Source of the DNA: Octopus vulgaris
Taxonomy: Eukaryota
Direction of reading: 5' to 3'
Assembly (NCBI GenBank): GCA_951406725.2
Contig: OX597832.1
Span: 5,146,001 to 5,210,000, forward strand
DNA: 64,000 nt
Numbering within the stretch: the stretch's first letter is position 1; the number at the start of each line of letters is the position of its first letter. A model generated the notes under the pieces. That model was not told the origin of the DNA. It saw only the letters and a program-made list of their open reading frames with translations, and did not search any database. Made by a program: the position numbers and the translations under genes. Shown here one piece after another: positions 3,186-34,479 of the stretch.

Positions 3186-3208
3186 CTATTACTACTGTTG
3201 TTGTTAAG

Positions 3209-4536: not shown

Positions 4537-4672
4537 ATTTAAACTATCAATATTTGATCCAGAAGAAGACACTTCTGTACTTTGTAGTCCATTGGTAGAC
4601 CTTAACATTTTTAGTTCATTCCAATCTTACTTCCTGTTATGCTGTTGGCATTCCAGAGTGCTGTCAATTGCT

Positions 4673-8420: not shown

Positions 8421-8465
8421 TTTACCACAACTGAAACAAACATAACATATAAAACATAAGTAGAG

Positions 8466-8868
8466 GACTAGGAGTACCATATGAGCGTGATCGTTGCCAG
8501 AGCAACAAGCTGGCCTCCATGCCGATGGCACGTTGAGCGTGATCGTTACCTGTGTCACCTTACTGGCATTTGTGCTAGTGGCACGTGCAAAAACATTTGA
8601 GCGAGGTTGTTGCCAGTGCCGCTGGACTGGCTCGTGTACAGGTGGCACATAAAAAGTACCATTTGAATGTGTCCGTTGCCAACACTGCCCCCACTACACT
8701 CTCAGAGTGGTTGGTGTTAGGAAGGGCATCCAGCAGTAGTAACTCTGCCAGATCAGATTGGAGTCTGGTGCAGCCATCTGGTTCGCCAGACCGCAGTCAA
8801 ATCGTCCAACCCATGCTAGCATGGAAAGCAGACGTTAAACAATGATGATGATGATAATGATGATGATA
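8466..8868 (+). mobile_element. SINE with Meta/MESC-like domain and (GAT)n tail
   Basis: ggttggtgttaggaagggcatccagc..catgctagcatggaaagcagacgttaaac(gat)n; other copies near 13630 (-), 21475 (-), 33515 (-), 34250 (+), 61160 (-) and 62790 (-). Confidence 0.7.
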
Positions 8869-9199
8869 TATATATATATATGATGACTGACTCTCAACAA
8901 AGACTAAATATGAGCATTCAGCTTTTGCCGAACGACCTGCACAAATGATTAGTTTATAGTGATGAAATGCTCATGCTGCACATCAGCTCACTCTCTCCAT
9001 CTAGTTGACATCTGAACAGGTGCACTATGAGTCAGGTGTTGAAGTGATTGTAGAGCAACATGAAATGAAATATGTTGCTCGAGAACACAATGCACTATCT
9101 GGTCTAGAAATTGAAATCACAATCTAGTGATCATGAGTCCAAAACCCCTAACAACTAAACCATGCACCCTCATATATACATGTATATGTATACACATAC

Positions 9200-9950
9200 A
9201 CACGCACACAGAGTATCCTTAATTGGACTTCCTCTCCAGTTTATAGCTCCTTGTTAATTCCATCAAAAGAGATAATTTATTTATGTTTTCTTCAGCCATT
9301 TATACTGTACTATGCTGCTACTGTCTCTGCTTATACTTTCAACATTTAACTTTTCTTGAGATGCTTTATACTTCAATAACTTTTCAATTTGCTGAAAGTA
9401 TTGTAAACTCTACACATTTTGGTGCATGCTTACAGTAATTTTTTTTAAAACTCTCATCCACAAGTGTTGGCATATTTATCATCCAATGGAAATAGCTTCC
9501 TTAACTGTCTGTTTAACAATCCTGTGATTATATTGTCAGCACCTGGTAGTTTATTACCTTTTGATATTCACTGTACATTCTGTTTCACTTGCTTTGCTAT
9601 TACGCTATTACTGGATAGACATTAATCACATTCAGTGATTATGTAAATTAATGTTTCTCTTTCCAACATATGCAGAGACAAATAAATTTTCTTTGAGTTG
9701 GTTTTAATAGATTATCAATCATTGAGCATCTTTCACTTTATGCATTGTTTTCTTCTCATTTTCTCTTGTGCTGTAGTCTTTCTATCTTCAGTGTGCCTAG
9801 CTTTTATTTTGTATGTTATTGTTTGAAGGAGAATATTTTTCTGTATTGTTCATAATCAACCTACTTATAACTTCTAGCAAGTATTGTGCAAGCCTATAGT
9901 AGTTATTCTTTGTATAAGGATGGCTTTCTAGTTCACTACTTTAAAGACTA
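9200..9950 (-). mobile_element. Very decayed LINE reverse-transcriptase fragment
   Basis: Minus-strand KLPGADNIITGLLN-like motif near 9510-9552 (cf. KAPGxDxI). Confidence 0.4.
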
Positions 9951-10789
9951 CAGTGATAGAATGTAATCCATGCATGGTAAAATTCATTCAATGAGTGTTA
10001 GTTTGTTTAATGAGTAAATACATTTACCAGTAGATATAATGAGTAAATATATCTAACATTCAAGATGTTAATGTTCTGGTTTTTCCTCTGTTTTTAAATG
10101 AAGCCAAATTTTCATTACATTTAGGTAGTTGAGAAAAGTCAAAAGTTAATTTCATGCAAGCATGTGAACTACACTTAACCCAGACTTCGCACCCTGACAG
10201 AGTCATATGTACTTATGACTGACATTTTTGAATGAATAGAAAAGTCATGTTTCTTTGCATTTCAACTCAGAACTATTAGAGAGTATATTATAATTTTTTT
10301 TTTTTGTTTTTACTTAGTTTCTCTCATTGTTAGAGTAAGGAACATTGCAAATAGCTTTGAGACCAAAGCATACCTTTACTTAACCCTGTTTGTGATGGGA
10401 AAGAGTATGAAAGATTACTGTTGCAGTTCACCTTTACAGAGCCACCAAATTACTTTGAGGAGGGTAGTAAGACATTTATACTCCCATTCAGCTTTCATAG
10501 AGCCACATTTTTGGAAACATACTCTCCAATATCAGTCACTAGATGGTGCCCATCCTTAATCTTTTAGCATATAGAACTGGCCATATCCAACCAAAATATT
10601 CCACCTGCTATATGTTCAAGCCAACCAGATCTGACCTCTTATACCTTGCCCTGTAATATTATTTTTAAACTAAACAGTCACATCATCAAAATCTGAAAGC
10701 TATGCGATATTGTATAATTAATTCAAAACAATGGGAATAAATAAACATTACATTTGACTGAATAATCTGAATACTAAAGGCTTTTGGTG

Positions 10790-12110
10790 AAAGGAATTTG
10801 GTGAAAAGAGTGTTTCACACTCACCATAGCAAGACTTTTGACTGTCTGACATAACGAAACTCTTGATAAAATTGCTTGCTTATAGGTGCCAGCTGTCATC
10901 TCTCATACCAGTGGCTTCCTGTTAAGTTGCACTATTGTTGAATATACTGATGGATCTCCCTCTTATCCATAGTTTATTAACTCTGTTGTTCCTCAAGTCT
11001 TGATTTTGACCATTTGTTGTTATATTCAACAATGTTTACTCATACACACTTGATATTGCCCTTTCTATTCTTTACTAAATATTTTTCACACTCAAGCATT
11101 ATCCAGATGAATCCTGAACACCCCATGCCAAATCCACATTGAAACTATAAACAGAAGCTTTGAAAACTTCATGCAATCTTATCTTCTTCAACAATACAGT
11201 GACACAATTCACACACACGCATGCACAGAGTTTTACCATCATGAAACCAGGATTTTCTACATCTGAAGGTAGCCCAGAACTCAGGTTGGGTGCTGCTTTG
11301 GAAACGCCCTACATTTATACCCTATCAGGACCTTATGGAAACCATGCAGTCCTTATAAGGACATTTGGATTTACCAAGTGAGGATTAACCGACTATAGTA
11401 AATTTTAACTAACTTGAGCTTCATCAACATTCACTGTGGCTAGCCAGCATTGACAACTGATAAGCGCAAACTTGGAACCCACTAGGATTATATACCCCAC
11501 CAAAACCATTTTGGAAAAACATGCACACACACACATTGTTACACCTCATTTCACTAAACATGAACAACATGCAACAAGAATTCTTATGACTGCTATAAAT
11601 GCTAGGGTTCATTATCACTGAGGATCTTACTTGGTGAATGCACATCCTCACCATAGCCAAAACTGCTTCATAAAAACCGGCCTTTTGTTCAGAATCAGAA
11701 AATATTCCAGCTCTCAATAGCTACTAACTCTACAAAGTGCAAGTACTCCACAATGGAGTACTACTCCAACATTTAGAATGGTGCTGTTGCCACACTTATA
11801 GACACCTTGACAACATTCAAAGGAAAGTTACTTGAATGATTACTTTATCCCCCTTCTCTACAGCAGTGGTTTCTGGTTTCTACTGTTTGGAACTGGCTGA
11901 ACTTATGCTGTCTCATCCAAGTATTTCCTACTCACTTTTCCCTTCTTGTTGTCACCAGTATTGTCTTAACAGACCCATGTTAATCACTGTATGTAGCCCT
12001 TCCTCTCTAGAATTCCATTTCTTCATATTTTTTCTGTGTTAGTTGACTTGACCACATCAATTTCATGATTCATGGATAGCACAACTGCTCTCTCCAGACT
12101 ATAACAATGA
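10790..12110 (+). mobile_element. Decayed CR1/Jockey-group LINE RT fragments
   Basis: Remnants TFDCL.H..LLIKLLAY, INSVVPQ.LIL and YKVQV..TMEYYSNI. Confidence 0.5.
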
Positions 12111-12147
12111 AAGTAAAGACCTATAAAAATAAATGAAAAAAATAACT

Positions 12148-12292
12148 CAGGCTGTGTGTAAGAAGCTTGTGTAAGAACCACATTGTTCTGGGTTCAGTCC
12201 CTCTGCATGGGCAAGTGTCTACTACTATAGCCTCAGGCTAACCGAAGCCTTGTGAATGGATTTCATAGATAGAAACTGAAGGAAGACTATTG
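12148..12292 (+). mobile_element. CORE-like tRNA SINE, 5' part
   Basis: ggctgtgtg.taagaagcttg..gggttcagtcc..gggcaagtgtct..gaaactgaaggaag. Confidence 0.75.
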
Positions 12293-12295
12293 TCG

Positions 12296-12474
12296 TCGCC
12301 ATGATAGATCGCTAGCCACTACATGTTCTTTATTTTCTCTCCTTGTTTCTTTCTGTGGAAGAGTGTAGGCTTGAAACGTTAAAGGCTTTTTCACTTCCCT
12401 AGCTTTATACTAATACATCTGTTTGTTGTTTACACCACCTGTCTTTGTCTTTTTTTTTTTTGTGAATTCTCCCC

Positions 12475-12475
<1 letters not shown>
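12296..12475 (+). mobile_element. Short Penelope-terminus-like element with variant hammerhead, next to (TA)n
   Basis: TCTTT-CTGTGGA-A-GAGT gtag GCTT-GAAA-CG-TT-AAAGG at 12348-12385; same element inverted at 44210-44402 and 59552-59738. Confidence 0.65.
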
Positions 12476-12505
<30 letters not shown>

Positions 12506-14444
12506 AAGGGTCTTCTTTAATTGAACAGACATACCCAATGTATGTGCATTGCTTGTTCACCAGTTGTTTCTGATTTGATGCAGTGGAGATGACTCTCTTG
12601 AAGCACCTGGTGTTAGAGCACCTGTAAGTCATAGTCTTAGACAGATGAGACAACTCACCTTTAGTCCCATTCAGGAGCAATGGATTTCAATGTTTCACTG
12701 TTTTTGTGACTTATCAATGCCATGTACTTGAACCAACCTGAAAGCAAATTGAATAGCCTCACCATGATTATATGTAAAAATGGGTAAAAATCATCTGTTG
12801 CTATTCTCAAACAATGCCTACATAGGAATAGAGGCAAATATGAATTAGAAGCAGTGTGAGTGTTGTAAACATTATTGAACACACATACAAAATGTATGTG
12901 CTTTGTTTGTTTGCCAGTTGGCTGTGATTTGATGTGGTGGAGATGAATCTCTGAAAGCGTCAGCTGTTAAAACACCCCAAAGTCATAGTCATAGACAGGT
13001 AATATATTTATGTGTGTGTATGTGCTTGTCTTGGTGTCTATGTTTGTCCCTCCTCCCCCAACACCACCAGACAACTAGTGTTGGTATGTTTACATCCTGT
13101 AACTTGGCAGTTCAGCAAAAGTGACTGACAGAACAAGTACCAGACTTAAAAAACAAGTACTGGGGTTGATTCATTCGAGTAAAATTTCTTCAAGGTGGTG
13201 ACCCAGCATGGCTGTAGTCTAATGATTGAAACCAGTGAGAGATAAAAGATAGCCTGGAGAGAATTAATATTTGATGTTGTCAAGAAATTAACATAAATGA
13301 AATATCTTGTCCTTAGTTACAGAGCACTGCTAATAAGTATTAAGAGCATTTGTTTGAAAATGTCAAGACTGTATCATAACTTATCATCTATTCATGTGAC
13401 CTATTTTTGTACAAAGTCATGTATATATAGCTTTTGTTTAAAGATGTTATTATACTGTTCTTGTGTAGCCCAGTCCTACGTTGTTCATGTGTAACATATT
13501 TGAAAACAACTTTGACTGCTTTTAATTAGCAATACATTAGTTAAACTTATTCTTGTGTATATCTGGGGCAAGAATATCACCAGCTTTTGACCTATTAACT
13601 CTAGCTTTGAAGATACAACATACCCTTTATCATCATCATCATCATCATTTAATGTCTGTTTTCCATACGAGCATGGGTTGGATGGTTTGACAGGAGCTGG
13701 CCATGTTCCAATTGTCTGTTTTGGCATAGTTTCTGCAGCTGGAAGCCCTTCTTATCACCAACCACTCTACAGAATGTGCTGGTTGCTTTTTACATGCTAC
13801 CGCTATGAGTGCTTTTATGTGGCACCAGCATGATTGTATTTCACATGGCACTGGCATGAGTGCATTTTATGTGGCACTGATACCTGCAAGGCAAAAACCT
13901 CTCGGCTGGGAGAAAGAGTGGGGGCACAGCCACAAAGGACATGCCTCTATGTATGGATGCCCACGATTTTACAGAGGCAATGACCGAGACCCTTGGCATT
14001 ATGTTGTGCTTAAGAAGAAGACCCTACAAGCCAAGTAAAATCATAGTTATGACAGATATCGGTGTCATGCAAACGGCAGTTGTGCTGGTGGCCTGTAAAA
14101 GCACCTTTTGAGTGTTGGACCTCATGGAAGCAAGGACCAAGACCATTTGGCATTATGCCAGACTTCGAGCATTGGGCTTCATGGAGGCATTATGTTGTGC
14201 TGGAGAAGAAGACCCATTAAGCCAAGTAAAACTGCAGCTTGCCAGCCCTGGTCAAACCATCTAACCTATGCCAGTTAAATGATGATGATGATGATGAAAC
14301 CAAATTTCTCTCTGACCAAGAAGCATGTAGTTTCCGTGCCAGATTAAAGTTAATTCACTTGACTAACGCTCTCAAAATAGGACAGACATCATCATTTCCT
14401 ACTCCACCTTATACTATAATGACGAAAACAACAGCAATAATAAG

Positions 14445-15900
14445 ATAATTTTTTCTTTATTAGCCACAAGGGCTCAAAGTGATACACAAATAAACAAAGG
14501 AATGTTAAACAGTATTTACAAAGATATGTGAGGTGGGATGGATAAGTTATACAATGATGAAGGATGGGGTGAAATATGTTACCATGGATAACATCTTTCA
14601 TCAGCGGATGAATTGAAAATTTATAAAGCATAAATATTTACATGGAATAAATAAAGATGCATAATAAAACACACAATAATTAAAATGATATAGTTAATAT
14701 TATTAAAAGGAAATAAAACAAAAAAATTATTTTGAGTTCTCATCCACACATGGAAGAGAAAACTAGTGGGTAGGTTGAGCTAGAGCCTCTATCTGCCTAC
14801 CATTATTTGTACTACTGTCTTTTTCATCTGAAGGCACTTATTAATGGCTTTTCTTCTTCTTTTTTGAGTTGGTTGGGATAGATAATAATCCAAGTCTTCA
14901 GGATAACACTGTTTCAGTTTGTTGAAATTTCTGTATTGTTTTAACCAACAATCTGTCCTTTGTGTGTCTCCTGTATATCCCAACCCAACTGCACCTCTAT
15001 CATTTTAACATCAATGGAATATCTATGGTACCATAAGTATGTGATTTTGTGTATTAGCTGTTGTTTTACTTATTGTCTTCCTCTTCATTGATTTCATTAT
15101 TGCTCTGAGGAGGGCCATCATTATTATTTTAAAGAGGTTACTGATGACTTTCTTTTATCATTTTCTGTTTCCCCATTATAGTTTGAATACTTTCCTTTGT
15201 AACCATTATCTCTTCTTCTTCATGCAATGGAGTGGGGCTACTGGATTGGGAGTCAGTTCATTTGTTTCTATGACTAGGCATAAGATGATCTCCTTTGCTA
15301 TTCTTGCAATTATGACTGACGGTACTCTTGAAACTAGAGATTGCTGCTTTCCTTTCTTGTTTTCAATCCTAATTTTCCCTGTTCTTCAACAACATAGGTA
15401 GCAACAAGGCCTTTTCTCTTGCACCATTTGTCTTATTGCCCTCAACTCGGCACAACACTGGTATGGCCCTGTGGCCTTTGGAGACCATTAGGTCTTACAA
15501 ATCCATTTTGACACCCAATGAACATGTTGCTTCTCAGATGAGTTCTAACCATCCATCCATCTGCAATACAAAAGTAACCACCAGCTATGGATCCACATCA
15601 TTTCTAATGTTCTTTCTCGTCACCCTTGTATTTCTTTCCCCCATGTACTGAGGTAAAGTACATGCACAGAGGTATTTCTAACTATTTCAGCTAGTGTTTT
15701 TGCTAAGTTTTCATTCTTGAAAGTAAAGCAGACAGTACTCTTTAACTTAAATGAGAGAATTTCTTCTGAAATTTCATGTTCTGTTTGTTCTAATTGATGC
15801 TTCAATGGCCATCTTCTTTTTTAAACATAGATATATTATTTTTTTTTCTTTGCTTTCTTTCGGATTAGATCCTATAGCAAAAAGGCACTATCTGGTTTTA
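14445..15900 (-). mobile_element. Possible decayed L1/Tx1-like LINE (ORF1 remnants plus 3' end)
   Basis: Minus-strand Lys-rich remnants with KRPCCYLC zinc-knuckle-like motif near 15395-15420; ends in AATAAA plus A-rich tail near 14450. Confidence 0.35.
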
Positions 15901-16387
15901 CAAAATTCTCTCAACTAACTTCATTTTCTAGGTAAAACTAGCTTTAACACAGCATCTATATGAATCATTTAACATGTTTGTTTCTGTGCAAGTGTTGCTT
16001 CAGTTATTACTCTTCAAAATTATTTGTTAAACTGTTTGAAGTATTTTTCTTTTTATCAATTAAAATGTTCATTATTTTCTTATTTTTATTCATTCTGTGG
16101 TGCAGTTTTTTGCTGTCTTTTTGTATATTGTTTGTTGTAATATTTTGCTTTGTATAGTGGGCATATCTGTCAAAAATTCTGATGCAAAATGTAACCAAAA
16201 TGTGTAAATGAATAAAGTGCATAAAAGCAATCCATCAGGGGAGTGGGGGTGGATCTACTCCTGGGTATTGGGGCAAATTGTTTTCAGATAAAATCTTTTA
16301 CACCAAGCACTCCCAGAAAAATTTTCACTTGATAGTGCTTAAATAAAGTTATGTCTCAGAGAGACATCTTTACACTATGAGAAGCAC

Positions 16388-16812
16388 TAATAATAATAAT
16401 AATAATAATGTTAATAACACCATAAGGAGGTCCTTTTTCCATTCACCAAAGTGAACAGAACTTTAGCCAGGAGGAAGAGATGGTATTCAATGGTCATTGG
16501 GTGTTTCAACCCTGAACCATAACACCCTCCCATTGGTGGGTTAGCAGAGGTGGTCAAGTCACTGCTCCTCCTGGCTTCCAGCTTAACTCTTCGCTCTTGC
16601 TCCAAAGCCAACAAGATGCTCTTTCAGCTACCTCTCCCATCCTGTGCACAGCCACCCATTGCTCCTTTCCTCTCATTCCAATGGCTATAAGCATCCTCCA
16701 TGCCGACTGAGCAGGGAATCCCCTAAAGCCAGCCTTGACTGGGAAAAGCCATACCTGCCATCCATTCTCCCTGCAATCCTGCAGAAGGCTCTCATATTTG
16801 GTACACTCCCAT
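16388..16812 (-). mobile_element. 3' end of a Hero/NeSL-type restriction-endonuclease LINE
   Basis: Open minus frame ECTKYESLLQDCRENGWQVWLFPVKAGFRGFPAQSAWRMLIAIGMRGKEQWVAVHRMGEVAERASCWLWSKSEELSWKPGGAVT* (cf. K..KY and VEVGCRGF motifs), followed by a (TTA)n tail. Confidence 0.75.
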
Positions 16813-16821
16813 TCTTTCTAC

Positions 16822-17166
16822 TATAGGTATAAGGCCTGAAATTTTTGGTGGGATGGGGCTAGGCAGTTACATCAACCCCAGTTGTCTTGCTTCCATGAGG
16901 TCCAACACTCAAAAGGTGCTTTTACAGGCCACCAGCACAACTGCCGTTTGCATGACACCGATATCTGTCATAACTATGATTTTACTTGGCTTGTAGGGTC
17001 TTCTTCTTAAGCACAACATAATGCCAAGGGTCTCGGTCATTGCCTCCTGGTACTTATCTTATCAACCCCGCTCCCAAAATAAAAGGTAAAGTTGACTTTG
17101 GTAGAATTTGAACTCAGAACATAAGGATGGATGAAATGCTGCTAAGCATTTTGTCCAGTGTATTAA
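16822..17166 (-). mobile_element. Nin-domain-like SINE interrupted by a 161-bp inverted copy of 13974-14134
   Basis: SINE sequence aaccccag...ctggtacttat is split by the insert at 16886-17046. Confidence 0.85.
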
Positions 17167-17293
17167 TGATGATGATGGTGATAATAATAATAAGAAGAAA
17201 AGAAGGCCCTTAATATCCCAAAATAACATTTCTGTGTAAAAGCAATTTTTCTACGTTTTAAACTCAGAATCTTATTGCTCTTTTATTATTTAG

Positions 17294-17377
17294 CTTTTTA
17301 CAGATGCAATTGAAGCTGCAGTTGGATATAAACTGAACACAACTGACTTTCTTGATAAAGTGATGAGAGAACTGGAG
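17294..17377 (+). CDS. RABL2: Rab-like protein 2 (RABL2), penultimate coding exon (84 nt, phase 0/0)
   Basis: ttttattatttag|CTT...GAG|gtaaga; encodes LFTDAIEAAVGYKLNTTDFLDKVMRELE, 16/28 identical to the remembered human RABL2 segment LFNDAIRLAVSYKQNSQDFMDEIFQELE. Confidence 0.85.
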
Positions 17378-17887
17378 GTAAGATAATTAGAATATTTCAA
17401 AATTAAAATGATTTATTTTGATTAGAAAAGAAGGCTGTTTATTTTTTTTGTAGGGGATAAATGTAGATGGTTCACATGAATTTGTTATGTTAGCAACACT
17501 TCTAGTAGAAGCATGATATGCAATAGAGCTAGATATTGCAAAGAATCTAGAGAATTTCTTGTTTTAAATAAATGATAAAGTATGTACAAAGTGAATCATA
17601 ACAATAATTATACAAAACTAAAATGGAACTAATAGTAAAAAGTTGTGCAGCTTGGTGCCTGGAAGAAAATCGGTTTATTATACACTCTGTTAGCTACTAC
17701 TCTCAATTTCACATTATTTTAATTTTGATTCCATATGTATTTCTTAAGTTATCTTTAGAGAAAGAAATGCAGTTTAGATTATTTCAAATTGCATGCACTC
17801 TAGCTCCCTCAAATTTATACAATAAATATTTCTGTGCTTTTGACTGAGTTGAGAGAAAAAATATTTGAGCAATAAGGTAAATAAGTC

Positions 17888-18100
17888 TTTCTACTATAAG
17901 CATTAAGCCTGAAATTTTAGGGGAGTGGTTAGTCAATTACATTGACCCTAATTCTCAGCTGTTACTTATTTCATCAACCCTGAAAGGATAAAAGGTAAGG
18001 TTGATCCTGGCAGAATTTGAATTCAGAATGTAAAGATGGATGAAATGTTGCTAAGTGTTTTGTCCAGTGAATCAATGATTCTGACAGCTTGCTGCTTTAC
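17888..18100 (-). mobile_element. Nin-domain-like SINE
   Basis: Reverse complement of the 978-2050 unit; further copies near 18690-18900 (-), 28960-29130 (+) and 36340-36556 (-). Confidence 0.75.
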
Positions 18101-19089
18101 CAAAATAAATAATAATATCTAGTTACATATTCTCTATGTTCTGAATTAAGGTCCCATAGGGGTCAACTTTGCAATTCCTAGAATAATGGATAAAGAGAAT
18201 ATATACCAGGGATGTATTAATTAAACTTTTATCAATAAAAAAATAGATCAGATCACTGGAAAAAAAAATTTGTTATTTAGTTACATTTACATTCCTAGCT
18301 TAAATAATTCAGAGGGAGGGGGGATATCATTGATAAATTAATTATCAGTCAAATATTGGCATTAATCAGTTACATACTCCCCAAAATGTGACACCTTAAG
18401 GTCCTAGATTCAATTCCAAAGCAATTTATTTCATGTGATTCAGTTTACTCAGCTGTAATATGGGCCAGCCAAATTCTTGTACAGCCCTCTCTTCTTCCAG
18501 TTGTCACATCCAGTATGTCCTCTGGATCAAGAGCAAGAGTATTTTTTTGTTTTTTAGTCAAGAGAGAAGGCATTGCCCATGACTCTTTATTGGGGATCTG
18601 AGACTGGTGAGAGGGAGACAAGAAGATATCATTAAACCAGAGAGCTGGCCTGAATGCTTCAAACAGATTGAACTCCACTTAAGGCACCAACAGTGCCAAA
18701 CAGGCCTTGGCAGGATTTGAATTTAGAACACAAAGAGTTGGAACAAAAACCAGAAGGCATCCTATCCAACATGTTTACAGTTCTGCTTGTCTGCTGCCCA
18801 GGATAGGTACTTTTTTTTACTGCTCCTGAAAGGATGTAAGGTAAAGATGGAATAAAGATGAAGCATTCTATACAATGCTCTAACAGCTCTGCCAATTTCA
18901 TCTTCTTACAACTCTATAAACACTTACAATAATTAGTGAAAGGCTGGTACATGTTACTAACAATGTATGGTGGTTGGCTGTACTTTGTTTTATTTGTGCA
19001 AATATCAGAAACCAGTATCTATTAAACTGCTAGAACTCATTAGATTATGTAGTCTTAGGTACATCATTGTTACCCCTTGTCTCTGCCTT

Positions 19090-21170
19090 ACATTACTACA
19101 TTAATAACACCAACTATGTTCTAAACCTCTTCAGTACTGTCTCATTTGTCCCTAAATTTTCAAAACTTTCTTTTTACCATAGACTTGAAACCTCTATTTA
19201 CATTTGTCCCCTGTAATGGCAACCTGTCAGTTTTAAAATACTTCCTGGACTGCCTTACCCTATTCCAACCCAGCACTACCCCAACCTCAGCTTAGTTGAA
19301 CTCATTCTCACACTCAGTTTCTCCTTTTCTACGAATTTTTACCCGCACAAAATCTGGGGTAATAGTGGGCACTTAGCTATGTAAATTTCTCTGTAGATCA
19401 TATCAAGGCCTAGGGTTTTGCTTAATGCATTGAGCCTGCCCCCAAGTTCCAAGATTGCTAAATTGATAACTGCACTGACACTATTAAAGGCGGTACTCCA
19501 GCATAGCCACAGTCAAATGACTGAAACAAGTGAAAGAGACACTCCCTCTTTTATAAGAGCTGAATTAAACTGTTTCATCTACATGAAAACATTTCACTCT
19601 GCAGTGGTATCAATTTCCAAGACATCTTTATAACTATTGGCATCATTTATCTGTATATACGTACAAGTACATTATTCCAATGGTTCTTGATGTAACCCTG
19701 CATATACCAAATCCATTATCTTCATCTCCCAATTCCTCCATCTTCACTGATGTGTAGCAAAGAGTCTTGACTTCCACTCTAAATTAGAGATGTAACATTT
19801 CTTCAGATGGCTACACTTCACTGAGCCAGAGCTGCCATCTATGCCAGTGATTCCCAAACTTTTACAGGCTGCTGCCCCGCTTGGCACACAGACCACATCC
19901 CCCCCCCAACCACTACCACAAATTCAAAACAATTGTATTTCACAAATAAAACTTAACCTAATCAATCCATTTTTTTTTTTACAAACATCGCCCCCTTTTG
20001 GCCACCCCATTATTCCACTTTTCTTCAGTGCCCCCTTGCACCTTTCCACTGCCCTCAAGGGAGCAGTACCACCCACTTTGCTACAAGATTCATATGAGAC
20101 ATGCCTACATCTAAAGATCAAATTTCCTTTCTTTTACCTTCTACCAATTAAAAATTCACATGTAATTTACAGTTTCTATTCTTCAACCATGTAACCTTAC
20201 CTATTTTTTTTTATTTCACTACTTCTTTAAAAGAGACAAAAATCTCAGGGACAACCCCACCCAGCCTGATACATTCAAACACCATGACCACAGCCAAAAT
20301 CCTAAAATGAGATCATTCAAAACTTTAGTTGCATTTCTGTCAACTTCATCTACTGAATAACAGCACAGTAATGTGCTATACATTAGGTAAAATAAGATCC
20401 TGTTTAGGTAATGGCTTCTGCAAATATTTTCATAGTATTTGCCACCACATTCAGGGCAAATCTGAAGCTCACTGTTCTAATTCACCTGGCCTCTCTGCAG
20501 TCTGTGGTATCCTGAATTTCTGAACACCAGTCTGCTACATTCTCATGAACAAAAAGAAGTAACTTATCATACCTGTCACTCCTATACCTATAAACCTTAA
20601 TAAACAATTCTCTCACCTCATTTCATTCCATTCATTAACCAACTAATGTGTATTTTCATCAGGACTATCACCACTACTCTGCTCTTTATTAAGCACTGTC
20701 TATTGATTTGTATCTGTACATGAGTACTATTTTATTCCTTTCATTGACACATCACAATCCCCACCCACTACACTTAATTTTGTCACCTCTGTCCAGTGAC
20801 CTGTCTACACACCTACATTACTGATTCACTAAATATATATCTAACCTTTTAGCATTCAGATTTTTCTGTCTAATGTAATACTTATTTATTCACATAATTT
20901 TGAATTAATCATGCATTATCTCATAGCTTTGGGATTTTGATGATATGATTGTTTATTTTTAGAATGACTATATGATAGGTGTGAGAGGCTGGTTTGAACA
21001 TAAAACAGAATATTTGGACCAGATATGGCCAGTTTAAATGCTAAAGGATTAATATACAATCTGTATCTACTTTACATGTTTACTCCAAACCTCACTTATC
21101 TAACCCCTTAGCTGCAAAATAATTTCACTTTCTCACAGAAAGGGTCAGTTCTAAAAACATCAAATTTCAC
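19090..21170 (+). mobile_element. Highly decayed Penelope-like element with nested SINE fragment, hAT MITE (19845-20080) and piggyBac MITE
   Basis: FTIDLKPLFTFVP (cf. PLE FTMDVxSLYTxIP) and LVELILT remnants; degenerate hammerhead-like end near 21130-21165. Confidence 0.5.
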
Positions 21171-22285
21171 TTTTCTCTATAGCATACAAACTCATCAAAA
21201 CTAAATAAATTTCACTGCATAATTTTATATACTATACATGGAAAAAATGGGATGATCATAGTCAGATTGTCTTTCACCATAAGTCTACTTATCAGGCATT
21301 GCCTAGAACTAAAAAGAAAACATTTAAATATTTTTTTAAGCTGTCAGGAGTTCGATATGTTTGTTATCTATTATGCATGGAATCACTCAGTCATTGAAAC
21401 ATATCCATTTATATATAGTTGTTCACAGAACCAAAAATGCAACTGCAATTCATCCCATGCATAAATAACACATATCATTTAGCATCTGTCTTCCATGCTG
21501 ACATGGGTTGGACTGTTTGACTGGAACTGGTAAGCTGTAGAGCTGCACCAGGCTCCAGTATGTTTTGGTTTGGTTTCTACAGCTGGATGCCCTTCCTAAT
21601 GCCAACCACTTTACAGTGTACCAGGTTCTTTTTACGTGTCACTGGTACACCCTCCAAATATAATGGTTTGTTATCTCTTAAGATTTCTCTTGACAAACAT
21701 AAAAGATCAGGGTTTCTTCTCAGAGCAGAAAGTTCATCAACTCTGAACATCAGCTGGTCCTGTACATTGATTCTTCTACACTGGAGTGTGTCAAAATATT
21801 ATCCATACTCATTTGTATTCTGGACAATTTTCCAATAAAATCAATCTTCTAGATAAAGAAGCCAATCGTTTTCCCCCTGTCATTTTAATTTAATACTTAT
21901 CTGACTTACCTAACCTACTTCTGTTTCCTGTTACCCCTACTATAAAACACTTTTTCTGTAGAACCCACTTCTGATCAACTGACCTTTAAAAGTTCAAACT
22001 GAATATTATTATTGAATTTCTAGAAAGACAAATAAACACTGCCTCTCTTCCTTTGATAAAATATATGCTGTTTATCCCCAGATTGGTTTTGATGGAGCAG
22101 ATGATCAATGTTGCCTGTAAGCTGTGTATTTCGTTTAAATGCCCATTTGCTGTGGGATAGTGTCCAGGGAGTTGTCTCATCTGGTGTAGGACACTTGGTG
22201 TTCTTTAACACTCAGTGTCATGTAAGGAGCTTTTGCTGGACACCGTCCTGCAGTAAGTGGGCATTTAAACAAATCACATAAACAT

Positions 22286-22548
22286 ATATCTTTTATTTGT
22301 TTCAGTCATTTGACTGCAACTATCCTGGGGCACTGCTTTGAAAGGTTTTAGTTGAACAGGACTTACTTTTTAAATTCTAGTACTTATTCTTATTGGTATC
22401 TCTTGCTGAACCACTAACTTACGGTGATGTAAACACACCAACACCAGTTGTCAAGCAGTGGTAGGAGGACAAAGACACACATATTTATATCCACACTGTA
22501 GAACTGAACCTGCAACCATGTGGTTGGGAAGCAAGCTTCTTACCACAT
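22286..22548 (-). mobile_element. CORE-like tRNA SINE, internally deleted
   Basis: Reverse complement of the family at 59380-59990. Confidence 0.75.
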
Positions 22549-23246
22549 GTTTTTGCGTAATAGACTGGAAAGTGTGGTATATTTTACTTACTCTGCAAAT
22601 ATGATTAACCAGAAATTTCAACTAGTATGTATGTATGCCTCATTTATAATAATCCATATACATACATTTCATTATTTGAATATACAGATGTACTTCACAA
22701 GGACAGTGTGGATTTTAACCCCTTTATATATATATATCATGCAGTGAACTGGCAGATGTTATTAATGTCAGAATGGTTTGCAGTTTTGTTTAATTCCCAC
22801 CAAAGTCAACTTTATCTACTGAGCTTGAAAGAAGGAAAGCCAAAATACCAGTACAAGGCTATGACTTAGTGAAACTGTCAGAGCATTAGACAGGATTCCT
22901 TGCAGTATCTGTTCTGACTGTACATTCTGAGCTCAAATCCTGACTCTCGTAACCAGAAGAAAAAATAAATTATTGAGATATCTGTCAGTTGTTCTGACCA
23001 ACAGAGAATATCAGCAATGGGAACCGTATCCTTAGTTTGATTTTAGAAGCTACATATACACATGTACAAGCAACACAATATATCTTGCATTGAGCAATAT
23101 TGTAGTTCTCATAATATAGCCAGTAGCTTATATTTTCTCAGTTAAACTATATAACACTGATACACTTTTTTATTTTTTTATAGGACTTTGTTTTCCAGTT
23201 CTGCCTGAAAAATTATTCAATATTAGCTTGGTTTTTGTTTTTTCAG

Positions 23247-23306
23247 AGTTTTGATGTTGAAGATGAAGGAAACCTTAGTTTGACAGATGAACAAAAGAAA
23301 ATTTAA
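23247..23306 (+). CDS. RABL2: RABL2 terminal coding exon
   Basis: gtttttgttttttcag|AGT TTT GAT...ATT TAA; SFDVEDEGNLSLTDEQKKI*; phase 0 fits the upstream exon; acidic tail like human NFSLEQEEE; no CAAX, as expected for RABL2. Confidence 0.78.
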   Translation, partial: SFDVEDEGNLSLTDEQKKI

Positions 23307-23463
23307 ATTTAAAAGTCAAAAGTCAATTATTTTCAATATTGTGTAATGTGTTATTTATTTTATGACTTACTTCCTAGGAGTATCAACTGAAGTGCTTTTA
23401 AGAAGTAGATTGTAAAATAAACAGCTCATCACTTAGGACAAATTTCAGCTATTTTCCAATGTC

Positions 23464-23469
23464 AATAAA
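23464..23469 (+). terminator. Candidate RABL2 polyadenylation signal AATAAA (others near 23664 and 23763)
   Basis: First AATAAA about 160 nt after the stop; AT-rich context gives low specificity. Confidence 0.3.
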
Positions 23470-24824
23470 ATAAGGAAAGTTTATACAACTTTACACTTTT
23501 AGTTTTGTTAAGAATACCAGAATAGTTGGTTTATGTCTTAGTGTTTTGAAGAATACAAAACTTTTCACAACTCTTCTTTATACAAAATATCTGTTATGTA
23601 CTTATATAGCTGTTATAATTAAAACAGAATTGTGAATAACTAAATTGATAAAACCTTCTAAAAAATAAAATGTATCAAAAAAATTTTGATTTATATTAAT
23701 TATTAATTGATACTAATCAAAATGAAAATTTAGGAAATTGTGTTTAATTTATTTATTTATGAAATAAAATTACATTTTATTTAATTAAATATCTTCTAAT
23801 GGAATCAAGAGAATTTGAGAGGATATAAAACAAAATCGTTCAACACCAGAAAAATTTCAAGTAAAATAATAACTATGGCAAGAGAAAGCATTGAAAACTT
23901 TAAAACTTTCTATATCAACAACAGTGACATAATGAAGGATTATGAAGAGATATTTCTCTAAATCATATGGAAAATCTTCCAAAATTGAACAAACAAGCAA
24001 TTACAGATGGAACATCTTTTTTAGAGGGCAAGATCATATTTATTTTGGAAGCGCTGTTAAAAGGGTATATGGAATATACTTCTAAAATGAAAGGTTGCAA
24101 TTTTCGTTAACAGTATCACTTGAATATTTATAGAGATTAAATAAAATATTTAAAATGTGAAGTAACTGATTATAAATATAATAGAACTAATAGTTTTATT
24201 ATATTTACTAATAAATAAAATATTTTTTAATATTCAATAATTTGTCAAAAAACAATATCCAGTGTGTGTGCTGGTTGTATAATGCATTATTATATACACT
24301 GTGGGGGTTATGGTTCCAATATTGGGAAGTTAGAAAAAACAAAAAAGTTCATTTAGAAGTTGATTTGCAATATAACTGTGAAATTTTACTTGAAATATAG
24401 GAATTTACTTATAAAGTAAATCAGTTAATTATAAGAAACCTGAAGATTATCATGGATTAATAACTGCTGTAGTAGAAAAAAAAGTTTTATATAAATTTTA
24501 ATACTATTTTAGAATATATTGTGTTTTCATAAATGATTCAAGCTGCAGTCTAACGTTATACGTATATGTGTGTGTATGTGTTAAGATAATTCAACATTTT
24601 ATAGAACTTCCCAATAGATATAACTTTATCTATTAGCTTTGGTTTCCTATTTCCAGCATTAGCTTCGGTTCAACGGTAGGTTAATAATAGTAGTTCTAGA
24701 ATAGCATATAACGAGTAAGAAACCAAGCAAGTCACCTGAATTTCTCTATCACAGTCAGAACTCAATTCCAGTACTATTCACAGACTTAATATACAGCAAC
24801 ATACATTTCAATAAGGTAAAGACA

Positions 24825-27800
24825 TCAGTGAGACATTGATGATGAAATTTTACTGGTCACTGGACTTTTCTGACAGCTTTTTGATGCCAGTAAAGCCTTT
24901 TTGATGGCCTTCTCCAAATTCAGTCGATGACTAACTTGTGTAATACCAAGCATTAAGTAATCATTTCTGTTAAGGTTAAGCAATTTTTTACCATCAATAC
25001 AATGATGAGAAAAATTAGTTTTATATTGTGTCAGTTTTAAGCTATCAAGCCACTCAAGAACATCCACGTACAACCACTCTTCAACTGATTTATTTTGATA
25101 AGAATGTTTTGTTATATTGTGTTTTTTCAATGGTTCATTAAATTCTTGTGGTGCTGCTATAAATGATTCTTCAAAACCTTGATCTGTTGATACAGGGCTA
25201 GAACCATCTTGAAAGCTAGTTGGTGGTGGATGGACAATGTCAATTGGATGTTCTGTGCTTGAGGTAGAGAGTGTTGACAGTGTTGAAAGAGAAGAGATAA
25301 GGCTCAGAGAATCATCTGGTGGATGTATATCTCCAATCTGATCAACCGAAATAGATAACTCAGATAGTGGAGCCGGTAAAGTTTGTAGAGTAGGGTATGA
25401 TGGAAGCTCATCAGTAGCCCTTTCATCTGTGTCAGAATCACAAAACCCAGGAGGTGGTGCAACGATTGTTACAAAACTGGTATGATATGGAGATTGACTA
25501 GGAGTTGAACAATCTGAAGAATTAGATGGGTCAGTATTAGAATGACCTGTAGTCACTCCCTTTACAGTTATTAACTTCACTCCATCCCTTGAATTATTTG
25601 TAGCAAGTCCATTGTTGTTTTGTAAATTAGCAATTCTTTCTTTTATGGACACACCACTAATTGGTTTTGATGAAACATTTAGAGCTGGTTTTATTTCAAT
25701 GTGCACCTTACTGGTCGTTCTCTTAATCAATGGATTGGTTTTGTTCTGTACTCCATGTCTGGTTTGGTCAGTGTTTATCTTATTTTTTTCCACAGTTTTG
25801 TGGCTGATTACACAAGGTTCAGGTTCTTTTTTAGAGTTGTATGTCTTATTCTCATTAACTCTAGCTATGTTGTATGACTTATCAGATTTGACATTATTTG
25901 TAGCTGTACTGTTTAGTTTGTCAGATTTTTCATTATTTATAGCTATTTTGTTTGGTTTATCTATTGTCTCAGTATGTGTTGCTGTACTGTTTGGTTTATC
26001 TGATGTTTTAGTATGTACATTTATGTTGTTTGGCTTATCAGATATTTCAGTTTGTGTAGCTGTTCTGTTGGCTTTATCAGCCGTTTCATTGTTCGTACCT
26101 AATGATTTCCGACTTAGGTACCTCTGCCGTGCTTTTTCAGCTTTAATTAGAAAATCTTCTTGACCTTTCTTGGAATCATCATTTACATGTGGTTCTACTT
26201 TACCGTTCTGAGATTTTATAGCTTGATTTTGTAGTGTTTTTACTGTAGTCTTATTACTATTACTTTCTGTTGGCAGCTTGTCAGTAGATCTTTCCAAAAG
26301 CTTAGGTTTCAAAACTACTTTAGATATAGGTTTGTCTTCTGAAGAAGCTGAGTTTATTTTTCCTTCATTTAATCCTTTCTGTTTAACATCTACTTTAGCA
26401 TCTTTAACAACTGGTTTGTTCTCTTTAACAACTGGTTTGCTTTCTTTAACTACTGGTTTGTTCTCTTTAACAACTGGTTTGTTTTCTTCAGTGTTCTGTT
26501 TATTCTCCTCAACCTCTAATGTGTTCTCCTCAGGTAATTCTTTCACTACTTTTTTCATTCTATTGCCAGTGAAATAATACTTAGAATATTGTAGTTTCTT
26601 AGCTTTGTGAATTTGGGCTTCAATTTGATTTACAACAATATTTTCATCAGAATTTTCCAGCATTGAACGTCGTTTTGCTACAGCTTGTAAAATTTCTGCT
26701 TGATTTTTATCTTGTGGAGTTAAGTTGACACTAGTGGGTTTGGGTGTGGTCTTCTCTGGAATTTCATCTTTACATCGATTCTGTCTTTCCTGTGCAGCAC
26801 GTTTAATTTCATTTAGTAATTCATTTCCTGGGTCTGCTGCTTGACTTTCCTGGGATTCAGGAAGAGAAGCAGAACTGAATTGAGGAGGGGGAGGAGGAAT
26901 GGCACATAATTGATTAGATGGAGGAGGAGGAGGGGCAGGAGGAGCATGAGAAAATTCAGGTGGAGGAGGTGGACAGAATTCAGGTGGAGGAGGAATTATT
27001 TGTGGGTCTACAGTATTTTGAAAAGAAGGAGTAGTTGATGCTGTCTTGAAACTCTCAGATGAGGAAGAAGATGAAGATAGAGGTACCGCCAAAGACATTC
27101 TATTTTTAGTGAGATTTGAACCAACTGAAATAATATTACCATTGCCATCATGTGCTAAGTTGTCCTCTCCATCAGATTCATAGTCGGGCTGAGGTTCATA
27201 GTATGTATCGTGTGTACCATTTGAATAGTGTTGAGTACCTTGTGACTGGTCAATGTGATGAACATCTGCAATTACTGTTTTAGTTACACTATTCAGATTA
27301 GAATTGAAGTTGCTTGCAGATTTATTTCTATTCAAACTATCTTGTGGTTTATGAGATTTTGCCTGATTGACTGAAGATTGGTTTGTAACTAATTTTTTAT
27401 TATTACCAAATACTGCCACAGTTCCAGGTCTGAAACTTGATTCATAAGAATTGTGTTTGGTCGATTCTCCCGTAGAATTAACTGACTGATCATTCTGTGT
27501 ATTTATTGTTATAACTTGTGGAGGAGGAGGAATATGCTCTTTAGGAGAAACATAATGGTTTGACACCACAGGTGGAGGAACTGGGTAAGCTTTACCTCTG
27601 CTTGGTAAAGAATTGATATGCACAGAAGAGCCAATAGCAACTGAATGTCTACAACCAGATAAATCCATTCCTGGTGGAGGTTGAGAAAGACTTCCCAGAT
27701 ATGGTGCAGGATACAACTGATTTATCTGACTGGCATTCATTTTGGCTTGTTGACTTCTCAAAAGTCCAGAGGAATTGCTGCTGTAAGAACTGTTTCCAGA

Positions 27801-28108
27801 AGAAATTTGTGCATAATCTAAGTCAGGAGCAAGATTTGGTGTACTTCGAGATTTTTCTAGACTGCTTGTCTTTTTGTGGTATTTTTTAATGCGCACTTCT
27901 GAGGGGCTTAAACGATCAGGTTTGTGTGGGGCCTCCATAGAGCAAATGTTATCAATTTCAATATTAGACAGCCGTTTTTTAGCATAAGCAGCCCTAATAG
28001 AAGCAGTTTTTATTTCAGATTTCATTGCATTCTGATAAGTACTGTAACTATTTTCTTTTGTTGGGCTTTCACACACTTCAAATTCTGCAAGAGTTTGATC
28101 CAGTTTTT
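24825..28108 (-). CDS. SHANK: Shank/ProSAP terminal coding exon: proline-rich region plus SAM domain
   Basis: Acceptor tttcag|AA AAA CTG (phase 1) gives EKLDQTLAEF and runs into the 1083-aa ORF. Contains PPxxF motifs, the Shank-type SLISSLSTLSTLSTSS, and SAM VEEWLYVDVLEWLDSLKLTQYKTNFSHHCIDGKKLLNLNRNDYLMLGITQVSHRLNLEKAIK; stop TGA 24827-24825. Confidence 0.95.
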
Positions 28109-29812: not shown

Positions 29813-30165
29813 CTATACAAAATCTTAATTCTATCATTTAATTTGATGCAAGAGAATTTGTCCTCAAACAACAGATCACTAAACTACACCAATTATGAGT
29901 TAATTCAACATTCCACCTCCTCTCATCACTCCATAATCTATTCTGCTTCCATGTTTCTGGCTTTGAATATGTTCAGTGACCAGTTTAGAACATTGTACCC
30001 ATTACTAACACAGCACAAATGAGCTAAGAGTTTGGTACTGTATCCATTTGGTCATTGTAACTCTTATTTTCTCATAAATTTTTGTTAATCTTTGTAACAA
30101 TTTGTTAAAGAATTAAATTAATAATGTAAGAATGATTATGAGAGAGAGAAAGAGATTATACTTAC

Positions 30166-30255
30166 CAATTTCAGCCATTCCTTCTGCAAAAGATTTCGAT
30201 TTTGCTTTACTAAAAGATAAAGATGTAGAAGGATCTCTTCTTGGTGGCTCAGGTG
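30166..30255 (-). CDS. SHANK: Shank exon after PDZ (90 nt, phase 1/1)
   Basis: tttgtttag|CA CCT...ATT G|gtaagt; APEPPRRDPSTSLSFSKAKSKSFAEGMAEI resembles the Shank motif APPPPKRAPTTALTLRSKSMTAELEEL. Confidence 0.93.
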
Positions 30256-30429
30256 CTAAACAAATGAATCACCATAATTAGTAAGATGAATGATTAATAA
30301 TCATATTATAATATTAACATGTTCACTAATATATGTTTTCTCATGATCCCATTAGAGTAAACTTACTCAGGATCTTTTTTTTTTCAAAATCAACAGATGT
30401 ATTCAACTCAAACATTTACTATATAAATA

Positions 30430-31005: not shown

Positions 31006-31437
31006 TATAAAAGGTCCATATTTAATGTTATAATCTAATGAAATACATCCTCACTTGGCTGCATGCTAAAAGTTTTTCATAAAAATGTTATATACTAAAA
31101 TAGATTCTAGATATTTTACTCCAATTATACAACAGGTGTAGGCATGGCTGTGCGGTAAGACATTTGCTTCCAAACCACATAGTTCTGGGTTCACTCCCAC
31201 TGCATGGCACCTTGGGCAAGTGTCTTCTATTGTTTCGGGCTGACCAAAGCCTTGTGAGTGCATTTGGGAGACAGAAACTGAACAAAGCCTGCAAAAGAGT
31301 GGACTCTGCTAAAGGTGTGTCTATTAAGCTGCTTAAAATAACTGAAGAAAATAACACAAGCAATTACTTTCTGTGCTACATTTTGAACCAATACAAACTA
31401 ATATTAATGAAAATATTGCAAGGTAAAGCATTCCTAC

Positions 31438-31609
31438 CTTGTCTTCGGCGACTTGGTAGAGTGAATGAACCATCTTCATGGACGAATGCATTTTTGTCCT
31501 GATCTGTTGGTTTTACAGTTAAAACTGTCATTCTCAGCATGTTGCCTGAATTCTTGATTAACTTCACAACGTGTTCATGGGAAGCTCTAGTTACATTTTC
31601 ATCATTGAT
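31438..31609 (-). CDS. SHANK: Shank PDZ exon 3 (172 nt, phase 0/1)
   Basis: cttttcaaaag|ATC...CAA G|gtagga; INDENVTRASHEHVVKLIKNSGNMLRMTVLTVKPTDQDKNAFVHEDGSFTLPSRRRQ. Confidence 0.93.
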
Positions 31610-32730
31610 CTTTTGAAAAGGAAGAAAAAGAAAATGAAATAATTTTTAATATTCTAGACTATCAGATTTTCTTTTATCATAGAATGTTGTCCACATACTC
31701 TATCTGATTTGTTTCTTTTATTTTATTACATATATAATACAAAACCACACTAAAATACAAATCCAGAACCGAAGAAAATTCAAGCATGTGTGAAGAAAGG
31801 TTAAAAAAAAAAAAAAAAAAAGGAAAAAGAGGAAGAAAGAAAGGAAAAGAAAGAAAAAAGAACATCAATTCAACACCAAGTGCCTCAATTGGCTGAAGCA
31901 AGCCCCCACACTTGTGGCATTATCACAGATGATGGTGAAGCTAAGAATTATAGAATTATATAGTTAGTATAAACAATCTAATTTTCAGAAAATAATTTTA
32001 ACAGTGGAAACAGCTACTGCATTGACAACAAATACTTTTGAAGAACTAATGGTGAAATTTGTACACCTTGAGGTCTTGTAATACCAATTTTGTGAGAAGT
32101 AGCAATAAATTAGTCCCTGAAGCACGTAAGAAAAATAAAAGTAACTAAAATTTCAGGACAAAGAATTCTTGTTAATGAGTTTTACTATAGAATATTGAGC
32201 GTATTGCTTTGAATATATGTCAACTACTTCAATAAGGAAAACAGATTTTATACTGTCAAAGTTAGCATGAGCTATTGAAAACAAATTCTTATCCATTTAC
32301 CTATATTACTTCATATTACAATGAATATTGTAATATGAAATAATATTGAATATTGTAATGCTAAGGTAGCTGAGTGGATAAATTGTTAAAACTTCAAACT
32401 TGCTGCTAGTGTCACATGGACTTTCTGGATAGAACATATGATTCTGTAATGTCTCACTAAATTTATGTTGCATGAGTAACCATTAGTTTGTCTGATAATG
32501 TTTAATCTCAGACTAAAGGTCATCACTATTTTGACCTGCATTACAAATAGATCTAAATTGTGGTTCTGATAACTGGCTGCATATAATAATTGCAACATAT
32601 TGTTGCACTTATTCTTTGTTAATCTTCATCATGCATAGTCATTTCCCACTAAATGGTTAGCTATAACAGGTTTCTACTGTATAATATAAAAGAGAACATA
32701 ACACATAAAAACTCAAGTTTTATTACTTAC

Positions 32731-32852
32731 TTCCAATATGAAATCCCCAGCTCTAAGACCTGCCTTCTCAGCAGCACTACCAGCATCCACAGTGTCCAGA
32801 TACTGCACGGCAGGTGAATTATTTGAAACATGATTAAGAAATTGATGATCAG
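32731..32852 (-). CDS. SHANK: Shank PDZ exon 2 (122 nt, phase 1/0)
   Basis: ttttgtag|CT GAT...GAA|gtaagt; SDHQFLNHVSNNSPAVQYLDTVDAGSAAEKAGLRAGDFILE (cf. Shank PALQYLESVD..GVAW.AGLRTGDFLIE). Confidence 0.95.
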
Positions 32853-32929
32853 CTACAAAAAGGAAAAAAAAGTTCCAGAGAAATTACTGCAAGTTAATTT
32901 AAATAATATAACGTTAAAAAAATTTATTA

Positions 32930-33793: not shown

Positions 33794-33867
33794 ATCTAGC
33801 TCCTCGTAGTACAAAGCCATAACCATTGGGAGTTTTTCGAAGGGTAACTGCCCGAGGAGCATAATTA
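33794..33867 (-). CDS. SHANK: Shank PDZ exon 1 (74 nt, phase 2/1)
   Basis: ttctttcag|T AAT...AGA T|gtaagt; NYAPRAVTLRKTPNGYGFVLRGAR (Shank signature GFGFVLRGAK). Confidence 0.95.
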
Positions 33868-34479
33868 CTGAAAGAAGTCAAAAGGATAAAGTTAAATATA
33901 AAATCAAACTCTGAAAGCATTTTGTAATATTTAAATATAACTGTAAAAGAAGGGAACATATGGTGATGGATTAGAAGATAGAATCAGATAGAATTTGTTG
34001 GGTCAGGTTTTCTAAAGCCTGATGCCCTTCCTGTCACTAACTCTCATCTGTTTTCAACTAAGATAATATTTTCCCAAGATCAGGCATGTTTTCATGAAAA
34101 GTGGAATTGAATGATACTGCTCGGATGATAATGACACTCATTTACAACTGCAACATTATGTTAAGGAAAGGAGAAAGTGACAAATACACACATCCATACA
34201 CATTCAGTCATTGAGTCACACAGAGGCAATGCCAAGCAACCAAGACTTCTGGTCATTTGCTGTGCTTGAGAAGACATGTCAAGCAAAGTGAAATCATGGT
34301 AAAAAGCACATGTAAAAGGCACCTGTGCTGGTGACACATAAAAGACGCCCAGAACACTATGGAATGGTTGGCATTAGAAACCATAGAAACCAAGCCAAAA
34401 TAGACTGGAACCTGGTGAAGCTTTCCAGCTTCAATCAAACTGTCTAACCCATGCCAGCATGGAAAACAGATGTTAAATG

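Follow-up and report, generated by a model that had tools for sequence, protein, structure and literature searches.

RABL2 and Shank lie tail to tail in the octopus genome, an adjacency very probably ancestral to molluscs and chordates

A 64,000-nucleotide stretch of the Octopus vulgaris genome (assembly GCA_951406725.2, contig OX597832.1, forward-strand positions 5,146,001 to 5,210,000; hereafter the window, to which coordinates refer unless the contig is named) carries the end of a gene for the small GTPase RABL2 on the plus strand and, facing it, the end of a gene for the synaptic scaffold Shank. A sequence-only reading had proposed this layout from two small exons, likened it to human 22q13.33, and suggested a gene pair of bilaterian age held together by shared regulation or coupled 3' ends. 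We conclude that RABL2 and Shank form a real, old, tail-to-tail pair of a familiar type, which probably survived for want of room to break it and not through any joint work of the two genes. Their adjacency very probably dates from the common ancestor of molluscs and chordates, and an old pair that has been retained passively is the account we favour, at somewhat better than even confidence.

RABL2 and Shank converge in octopus

Proteins of named Octopus species match the window at 98-99%, in keeping with its octopus origin. The two exons that had been read as the end of RABL2 lie on the plus strand at 17294-17377 (84 nt, preceded by AG and followed by GT) and at 23247-23306 (preceded by AG and closing with TAA). 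Both are in phase 0 and they splice in frame to give 28 + 19 = 47 codons, just as had been described. They proved to be the last two of eight coding exons, numbers 7 and 8, in a complete RABL2 gene, the first six coding exons of which are found at 5052756-5133762 of OX597832.1, 12-93 kb upstream of the window, with the gene start at the 93 kb mark. The model comprises 221 codons in an uninterrupted frame and all seven of its introns are GT-AG; in order they measure 10.0, 2.1, 2.3, 1.7, 64.5, 29.5 and 5.9 kb, and the gene spans 117 kb. Window positions 1-17293 (plus strand) belong to the 29.5 kb intron 6, and intron 7 occupies 17378-23246 (5,869 nt, plus strand).

The assignment to RABL2 also stood. 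A profile of 114 RABL2 homologues, none of them named as cephalopod, matched exon 7, which encodes the last helix of the G domain, with an E value of 3.1e-9, the runner-up among 2,864 frames of the window scoring 2.6. Exon 8 encodes an unconserved tail and was not scored by this profile; its basis is a match to an Octopus bimaculoides protein named rab-like protein 2A (P0001), along with forks in RNA-like contigs. P0001 differs from the model at 4 of 221 residues and maps onto all eight exons, its residues 172-202 falling on exon 7 and 201-218 on exon 8. No other Rab name occurs among the best 120 of 1,184 matches to P0001, and the other GTPase loci of the octopus genome match it at 23-49%. 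There is no cysteine in exon 8, and the protein accordingly lacks C-terminal prenylation cysteines; the RABL2 family is not known to carry a prenylation motif. The G1, G3 and G4 motifs are intact in exons 1, 4 and 5. Counting from the G3 glutamine, the protein appears to have residues equivalent to human S35, D73 and Q80, the roles of which have been described (PMC5469608).

Contigs from four sequencing runs, each from a different study, were mapped onto 16500-28100. Three of the runs (X1, X4 and X6) are RNA-like, a status that is our guess and is not on record, and one (X15) is DNA-like. Contigs fork at 23245/23274 in all three RNA-like runs and at 17348 in two of them, so that both ends of intron 7 are marked, and the DNA-like run continues straight through. 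A contig of X4 carries exon 7 as an internal piece; this and the forks fit splicing of exon 7 to exon 8, a joint that is absent among the 15 of 470 joints listed. Part of intron 7 (17378-20927, plus strand) also has contig cover in X1 and X6, at a depth similar to or above that of exon 8, and reading past the exon 7 donor meets a stop two codons on. The covered part could represent a short isoform, unspliced RNA or DNA carry-over.

The facing gene is Shank, in the convergent layout that had been proposed. A 1,761-residue protein named protein shank (P0140, 99% identical) maps in 17 collinear blocks from 5270866 to 5170828 of OX597832.1 on the minus strand. The last coding exon runs on that strand from 28108 to 24825, with its stop at 24825-24827, and encodes a proline-rich region and a SAM domain that resembles the structures of Shank2 and Shank3, and also that of liprin-beta. 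Upstream, tblastn of P0140 places minus-strand exons with approximate ends at 30155-30256 (past the PDZ domain, residues 651-684), 31436-31612 (C-terminal part of PDZ), 32719-32853 (its middle) and 33795-33869 (its first part). The Pfam domains of P0140 are, in order, FERM-F0, ankyrin, PDZ and a C-terminal SAM, and the N-terminal region is 53-68% identical to named Shanks of other animals. Pfam SH3 is absent from P0140, and a profile of 15 SH3 N-terminal halves gave a best E value of 0.25 among 7,882 frames across the Shank span. On these matches the gene is a Shank orthologue by descent, apparently an SH3-less variant rather than a canonical six-part Shank.

Between the stop codons of RABL2 and Shank lie 1,518 nt in which no gene was recognised. 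In the RNA-like runs the RABL2-side contigs stop at 23695 (X1), 23654 (X4) and 23683 (X6) and the Shank-side contigs start at 23742, 23738 and 23786, respectively, which leaves gaps of 46, 83 and 102 nt. Bin depth at the junction agrees with an empty gap (69.1, 4.14 and 16.8 expected; 70.2, 4.14 and 17.2 observed), and a contig of the DNA-like run is continuous across it from 23200 to 26601. The AATAAA words listed between the stops number six on the plus strand and five on the minus strand. The plus-strand word at 23664-23669 was picked as the likely RABL2 polyadenylation signal, contigs ending 14-26 nt beyond it (X6, X1), and the minus-strand word at 23748-23753 is the likely Shank signal, with contig ends at 23738 and 23742. 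The RABL2 3' untranslated region would then be about 350-390 nt long (23307-23695, plus strand) and that of Shank about 1.1 kb (23738-24824, minus strand), single contigs reaching from 23742 (X1) and 23786 (X6) to 28100 in the coding exon; 23696-23737 would be intergenic. There is thus a weak hint that the two messages end some 50 nt apart and do not overlap. Against this, contig ends on either side fall in tracts rich in A on the respective strand, the contigs are strandless and the RNA status of the runs is a guess. In all three runs cover is deeper on the Shank side than on the RABL2 side; such depth is strandless and cannot rank the two genes.

The pair in other animals

For other invertebrates we took as a proxy for adjacency a common contig, judged by its length, together with the accession or locus-tag order of named proteins, which gives no strand. 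In 23 of the 27 species in which both genes could be placed they share a contig or have consecutive numbers, and in five of those 23 the contigs are only 0.16-5.6 Mb long. Accession or tag order was compared in 18 species, seven of which, from two gastropod and three bivalve lineages, have numbers at most 10 apart. Four of these are strictly consecutive: the abalone Haliotis rufescens (XP_046359224 and 225-228), the mud snail Batillaria (BaRGS_022828, a 69-residue fragment, and 022827) and the mussels Mytilus galloprovincialis in GenBank (VDI70073 and 074, on a 156-kb contig) and M. trossulus (XP_063403679 and 680-686). The other three are a third mussel, M. coruscus (CAC5376245 and 247), the scallop Pecten (XP_033741685 and 680-681) and the clam Ruditapes (XP_060600306 and 297-298, on a 956-kb contig). 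Outside this comparison, a common contig was found for Owenia, Ylistrum (1.9 Mb), M. californianus (2.9 Mb), Argonauta, O. sinensis, H. asinina and Ostrea.

Several observations weigh against an adjacency of general occurrence. RABL2 and Shank lie on different contigs in four of the 27 species (Bradybaena, Saccostrea echinata, S. cucullata and Saccoglossus), and in 11 of the 18 the numbers are 40 to about 35,000 apart or the contigs differ. The distances are 40 for M. edulis in RefSeq (far apart in GenBank), 225 for Glandiceps, 265 for Crassostrea virginica, 495 for Gigantopelta, about 615 for H. cracherodii, about 7,000 for Tubulanus, about 12,400 for Liolophura, about 19,500 for Magallana gigas and about 35,000 for Ptychodera; Bradybaena and Saccoglossus have the genes on different contigs. 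No adjacency was seen in the hemichordates, Glandiceps and Ptychodera having both genes on a common chromosome and Saccoglossus on different scaffolds. Consecutive numbers are strong evidence of adjacency, and distant RefSeq numbers are weak evidence against it. We did not accept distant RefSeq numbers as proof of separation, given that the numbers of H. cracherodii are about 615 apart and those of its congener are consecutive; nor did we accept a common chromosome-sized contig as proof of adjacency, because old linkage groups produce it anyway. In oysters (records P0454, P0455, P0302 and P0300) the two Saccostrea species have the genes on different scaffolds and two more species have distant numbers; direct adjacency has probably been lost there. 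Drosophila and C. elegans lack RABL2 altogether (PMC5469608).

For chordates, Table S3A of PMC13762310 gives shank3 and rabl2b coordinates in 28 species, where they serve merely as anchors for acrosin. Both genes are on a common scaffold in 23 of the 28 and at most 76 kb apart in 21; in the remaining five (Ciona, lamprey, elephant shark, coelacanth and anole) they are on different scaffolds, mostly fragmentary ones. Thirteen teleosts have gaps of 4.4-15.5 kb, and the values for sterlet, gar and bichir are 7.8, 10.9 and 28.9 kb. Four tetrapods range from 25 to 74 kb, and the widest gaps are those of catshark (484 kb) and lungfish (33 Mb; PMC13762310). The amphioxus gap, which tempers the case, is 75 kb, of which 21.6 kb is N, and may hold other genes.

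The sequence-only reading also had the human genes as convergent, and for this the support is indirect. We take it that human SHANK3 and ACR lie on one strand and RABL2B on the opposite one. Deletions fuse the last SHANK3 exon to the first ACR exons (PMC3136441), and a Ras-trypsin pair naming RABL2A and acrosin sits in the convergent sheet of PMC2871058; together these indirectly support convergence of SHANK3 and RABL2 in human and other tetrapods. Convergence is seen directly in octopus and indirectly in tetrapods.

Age and persistence of the pair

Irimia et al. (2012) define linkage by at most four intervening genes in at least four independent lineages. By this measure linkage of RABL2 and Shank is direct in octopus, is indicated by accession order in gastropods and bivalves and by coordinates in vertebrates and amphioxus, with the qualification that the mollusc classes are related to each other and that other genes may lie between the two in amphioxus. 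Two independent origins of one neighbour pair are unlikely, and the adjacency is therefore very probably ancestral to molluscs and chordates. The proposal of an old pair is supported by mollusc accession order and by the coordinates of jawed vertebrates and amphioxus. In cnidarians and a starfish, RABL2 is listed in a transglutaminase block and Shank is absent among 30 of the 68 block rows (PMC8851819), so that the evidence for the pair does not extend beyond bilaterian age. In the octopus genome a family search for transglutaminase gave no match.

Given ancestral adjacency, passive retention is probably the main cause of its survival. Facing 3' ends need no promoter room, so the gap between them would be free to shrink. 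Transposons would have swelled the introns while the junction stayed at about 50 nt, or about 0.02% of the 218-kb two-gene block, a target so small that the breaks of coleoid rearrangement would seldom land in it. Where the gap grew, the link would have become looser, and in some lineages it apparently broke; in jawed vertebrates the growth would be due to acrosin and spacer DNA. In yeasts, nothing predicts the retention of synteny better than the distance between genes (PMC2258174). That the pair outlived coleoid rearrangement, as had been claimed, is borne out, yet it is an ordinary outcome: 275 metazoan microsyntenies are retained in the bobtail squid Euprymna (Schmidbaur et al., 2022; PMC9023564).

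Some considerations count against passive retention. The word passive reflects a lack of signs of constraint; the vertebrate pair has been kept for more than 400 million years with kilobase gaps, for which the small-target argument is insufficient; and cis-regulatory constraint acts on many old pairs (PMC3514665). The last of these leads to the alternative that enhancers or an insulator within one of the genes act on its neighbour, in the manner of a genomic regulatory block. Such constraint is a known cause of old pairs (PMC3514665), the octopus RABL2 introns of 64.5, 29.5 and 10.0 kb offer room for it, and the vertebrate link has lasted despite its kilobase gaps. However, apart from octopus and lungfish RABL2 is a compact gene, of 1.5-13.5 kb in 21 of the 22 jawed vertebrates listed and 8.5 kb in amphioxus (PMC13762310), so long bystander introns are not a conserved feature, and there are the apparent breaks in four of 27 invertebrates. 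Moreover, neither RABL2 nor Shank is a developmental transcription factor, as a regulatory block would call for. We regard cis-regulatory constraint as doubtful, though worth weighing.

Coupling of the facing 3' ends was part of the original proposal. A form in which read-through of abundant Shank transcription antisense into RABL2, or a common termination element, tunes RABL2 output or the choice of its last exon is in our judgement unlikely. In its favour, the ends appear to lie about 50 nt apart with opposed AATAAA signals, the Shank side is the deeper one in three of three runs, X1 and X6 have contigs over intron 7, and in yeast mRNA duplexes arise from convergent genes whose gaps are short (PMC6993858). 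Yet the junction has no or almost no cover, so that the mature messages seemingly do not overlap, and strandless depth is unfit for ranking the genes. In tetrapods the ends are divided by acrosin and 25-74 kb, so that 3' coupling cannot be a pan-bilaterian cause. More generally, gaps range from 4 kb to 33 Mb, sometimes with acrosin inside, and a fixed 3' geometry is therefore not needed; acrosin and tens of kilobases in tetrapods, together with lineages that seem unlinked, weigh against any required coupling. As the cause of the pairing, then, shared regulation or 3'-end coupling found no support: the gap is 4-74 kb in most vertebrates, with acrosin between the genes in tetrapods, and four of 27 invertebrates have the genes on different contigs.

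A third alternative, that molluscs and chordates each joined RABL2 and Shank independently from the same ancestral chromosome, we consider quite unlikely. It would accommodate the hemichordates, nemertean, annelid and chiton, in which a common chromosome is seen and no adjacency shown, and the cnidarian and starfish RABL2 in a block without Shank among the rows listed (PMC8851819). On the other side, with several hundred or more genes to a chromosome, we put the odds of becoming direct neighbours twice, in equal orientation, at well under 1%, and amphioxus too has both genes, 75 kb apart (PMC13762310).

More improbable again is a stronger form of 3' coupling, in which the genes would have stood face to face for about 600 million years through interlocked termination zones, neuronal Shank read-through running antisense into RABL2 and shifting it toward an intron-7-retaining short form, with acrosin as a later insertion in jawed vertebrates. 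If true, it would tie the output of a synapse scaffold to ciliary transport, and losing the RABL2B side could then be tested as a modifier of phenotypes in 22q13 deletion (Phelan-McDermid). Finally, an assembly artefact, or exons from some other gene, is extremely unlikely given the gene models, contigs and protein mapping, zero N bases across the 384 kb examined in this 2.8-Gb genome, an independent-looking DNA run that crosses the junction (which may be the source sample), and RABL2 and Shank on one contig in two other octopods.

Comparison with known gene pairs

Nearly 600 conserved ancient microsyntenic pairs have been described, most of them head-to-head (54.8% in human; Irimia et al., 2012; PMC3514665). 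RABL2 and Shank resemble them in being unrelated genes whose link, with few if any others in between, spans protostomes and deuterostomes; they differ in being tail-to-tail and without a developmental regulator, most of the published pairs being head-to-head or regulator-bearing. The pair is most likely one of these roughly 600 pairs of known type, kept mainly by its tiny breakable gap. The text of PMC3514665 names neither RABL2 nor SHANK, and its separate pair list may hold the pair; a literature search that did not extend to that list found no RABL2-Shank pair outside chordates. The supplements of PMC13508932 contain neither gene name, and those of PMC2871058 and PMC8851819 contain the names without a RABL2-Shank pair among the rows listed. 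Likewise, the names are absent from seven supplementary files of PMC9023564, which may use gene identifiers only. Like the Euprymna microsyntenies, the octopus pair outlived coleoid rearrangement; those are multi-gene blocks, whereas the link shown here is one of two genes only.

The closest known counterpart is the vertebrate SHANK3-(ACR)-RABL2 neighbourhood of human 22q13.33 (PMC13762310, PMC3136441), with the same two families side by side. RABL2 has eight coding blocks in human, mouse, chicken, frog and octopus. The octopus locus differs in having no acrosin, a gap of about 50 nt as against 4-74 kb, a RABL2 gene about ten times longer, and a Shank without a full SH3. As to RABL2 itself, the protein is a small GTPase that binds IFT-B and CEP19 (Nishijima et al., 2017; PMC5469608), and binding to CEP19 and IFT74-IFT81 together with a ciliary role is known for the human and Chlamydomonas proteins (PMC5469608). 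The octopus protein is an orthologue with intact G boxes, for which such binding and a ciliary role are putative.

These results very probably extend the medically well-known human SHANK3-ACR-RABL2B neighbourhood back to the mollusc-chordate ancestor, and imply a later arrival of acrosin there. With about 50 nt between its genes in a genome of this size, the tail-to-tail pair also offers a clean test case of whether old pairs are kept by constraint or by lacking breakable space.

Other features of the locus

Between the ankyrin repeats and the PDZ domain of Shank (5226411-5238062 of OX597832.1) only a worn second half of SH3 appears to be left. Three named octopod Shank proteins are also without the first half and a close relative (P0292) has one; the first half seems to have been lost from octopod Shank. 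A FERM-F0 family search of the octopus genome found as its sole match another locus, on contig C28, and missed Shank itself. Short exons searched one at a time against PDB and Pfam gave no useful match.

No nested gene was recognised in the RABL2 introns among seven candidate frames searched against Pfam, none of which scored above the curated cut-off, and there were no Rfam matches in 1-28100. A composition screen of these introns found mainly transposon remnants. The frames 16554-16817, 40760-41616, 45266-46105 and 62031-62576, in introns of RABL2 and Shank, look from their motifs like remnants of reverse-transcriptase retroelements; the one that was scanned had no Pfam match.

Within a Shank intron, an open frame of 425 codons at 54534-55811 (minus strand) is 34% identical to the N-terminal part of a Shank-like protein (P0142), and is likely to serve as an alternative start of Shank, the first exon of a short form that has PDZ and SAM domains and no ankyrin repeats. 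At the other end of the locus, the first coding exon of TAF9 (Pfam TFIID-31kDa, E value 9e-13) lies on the minus strand at about 5047.3 kb of OX597832.1, head-to-head with RABL2 and 5.4 kb from its start codon, and a promoter common to TAF9 and RABL2 is possible.

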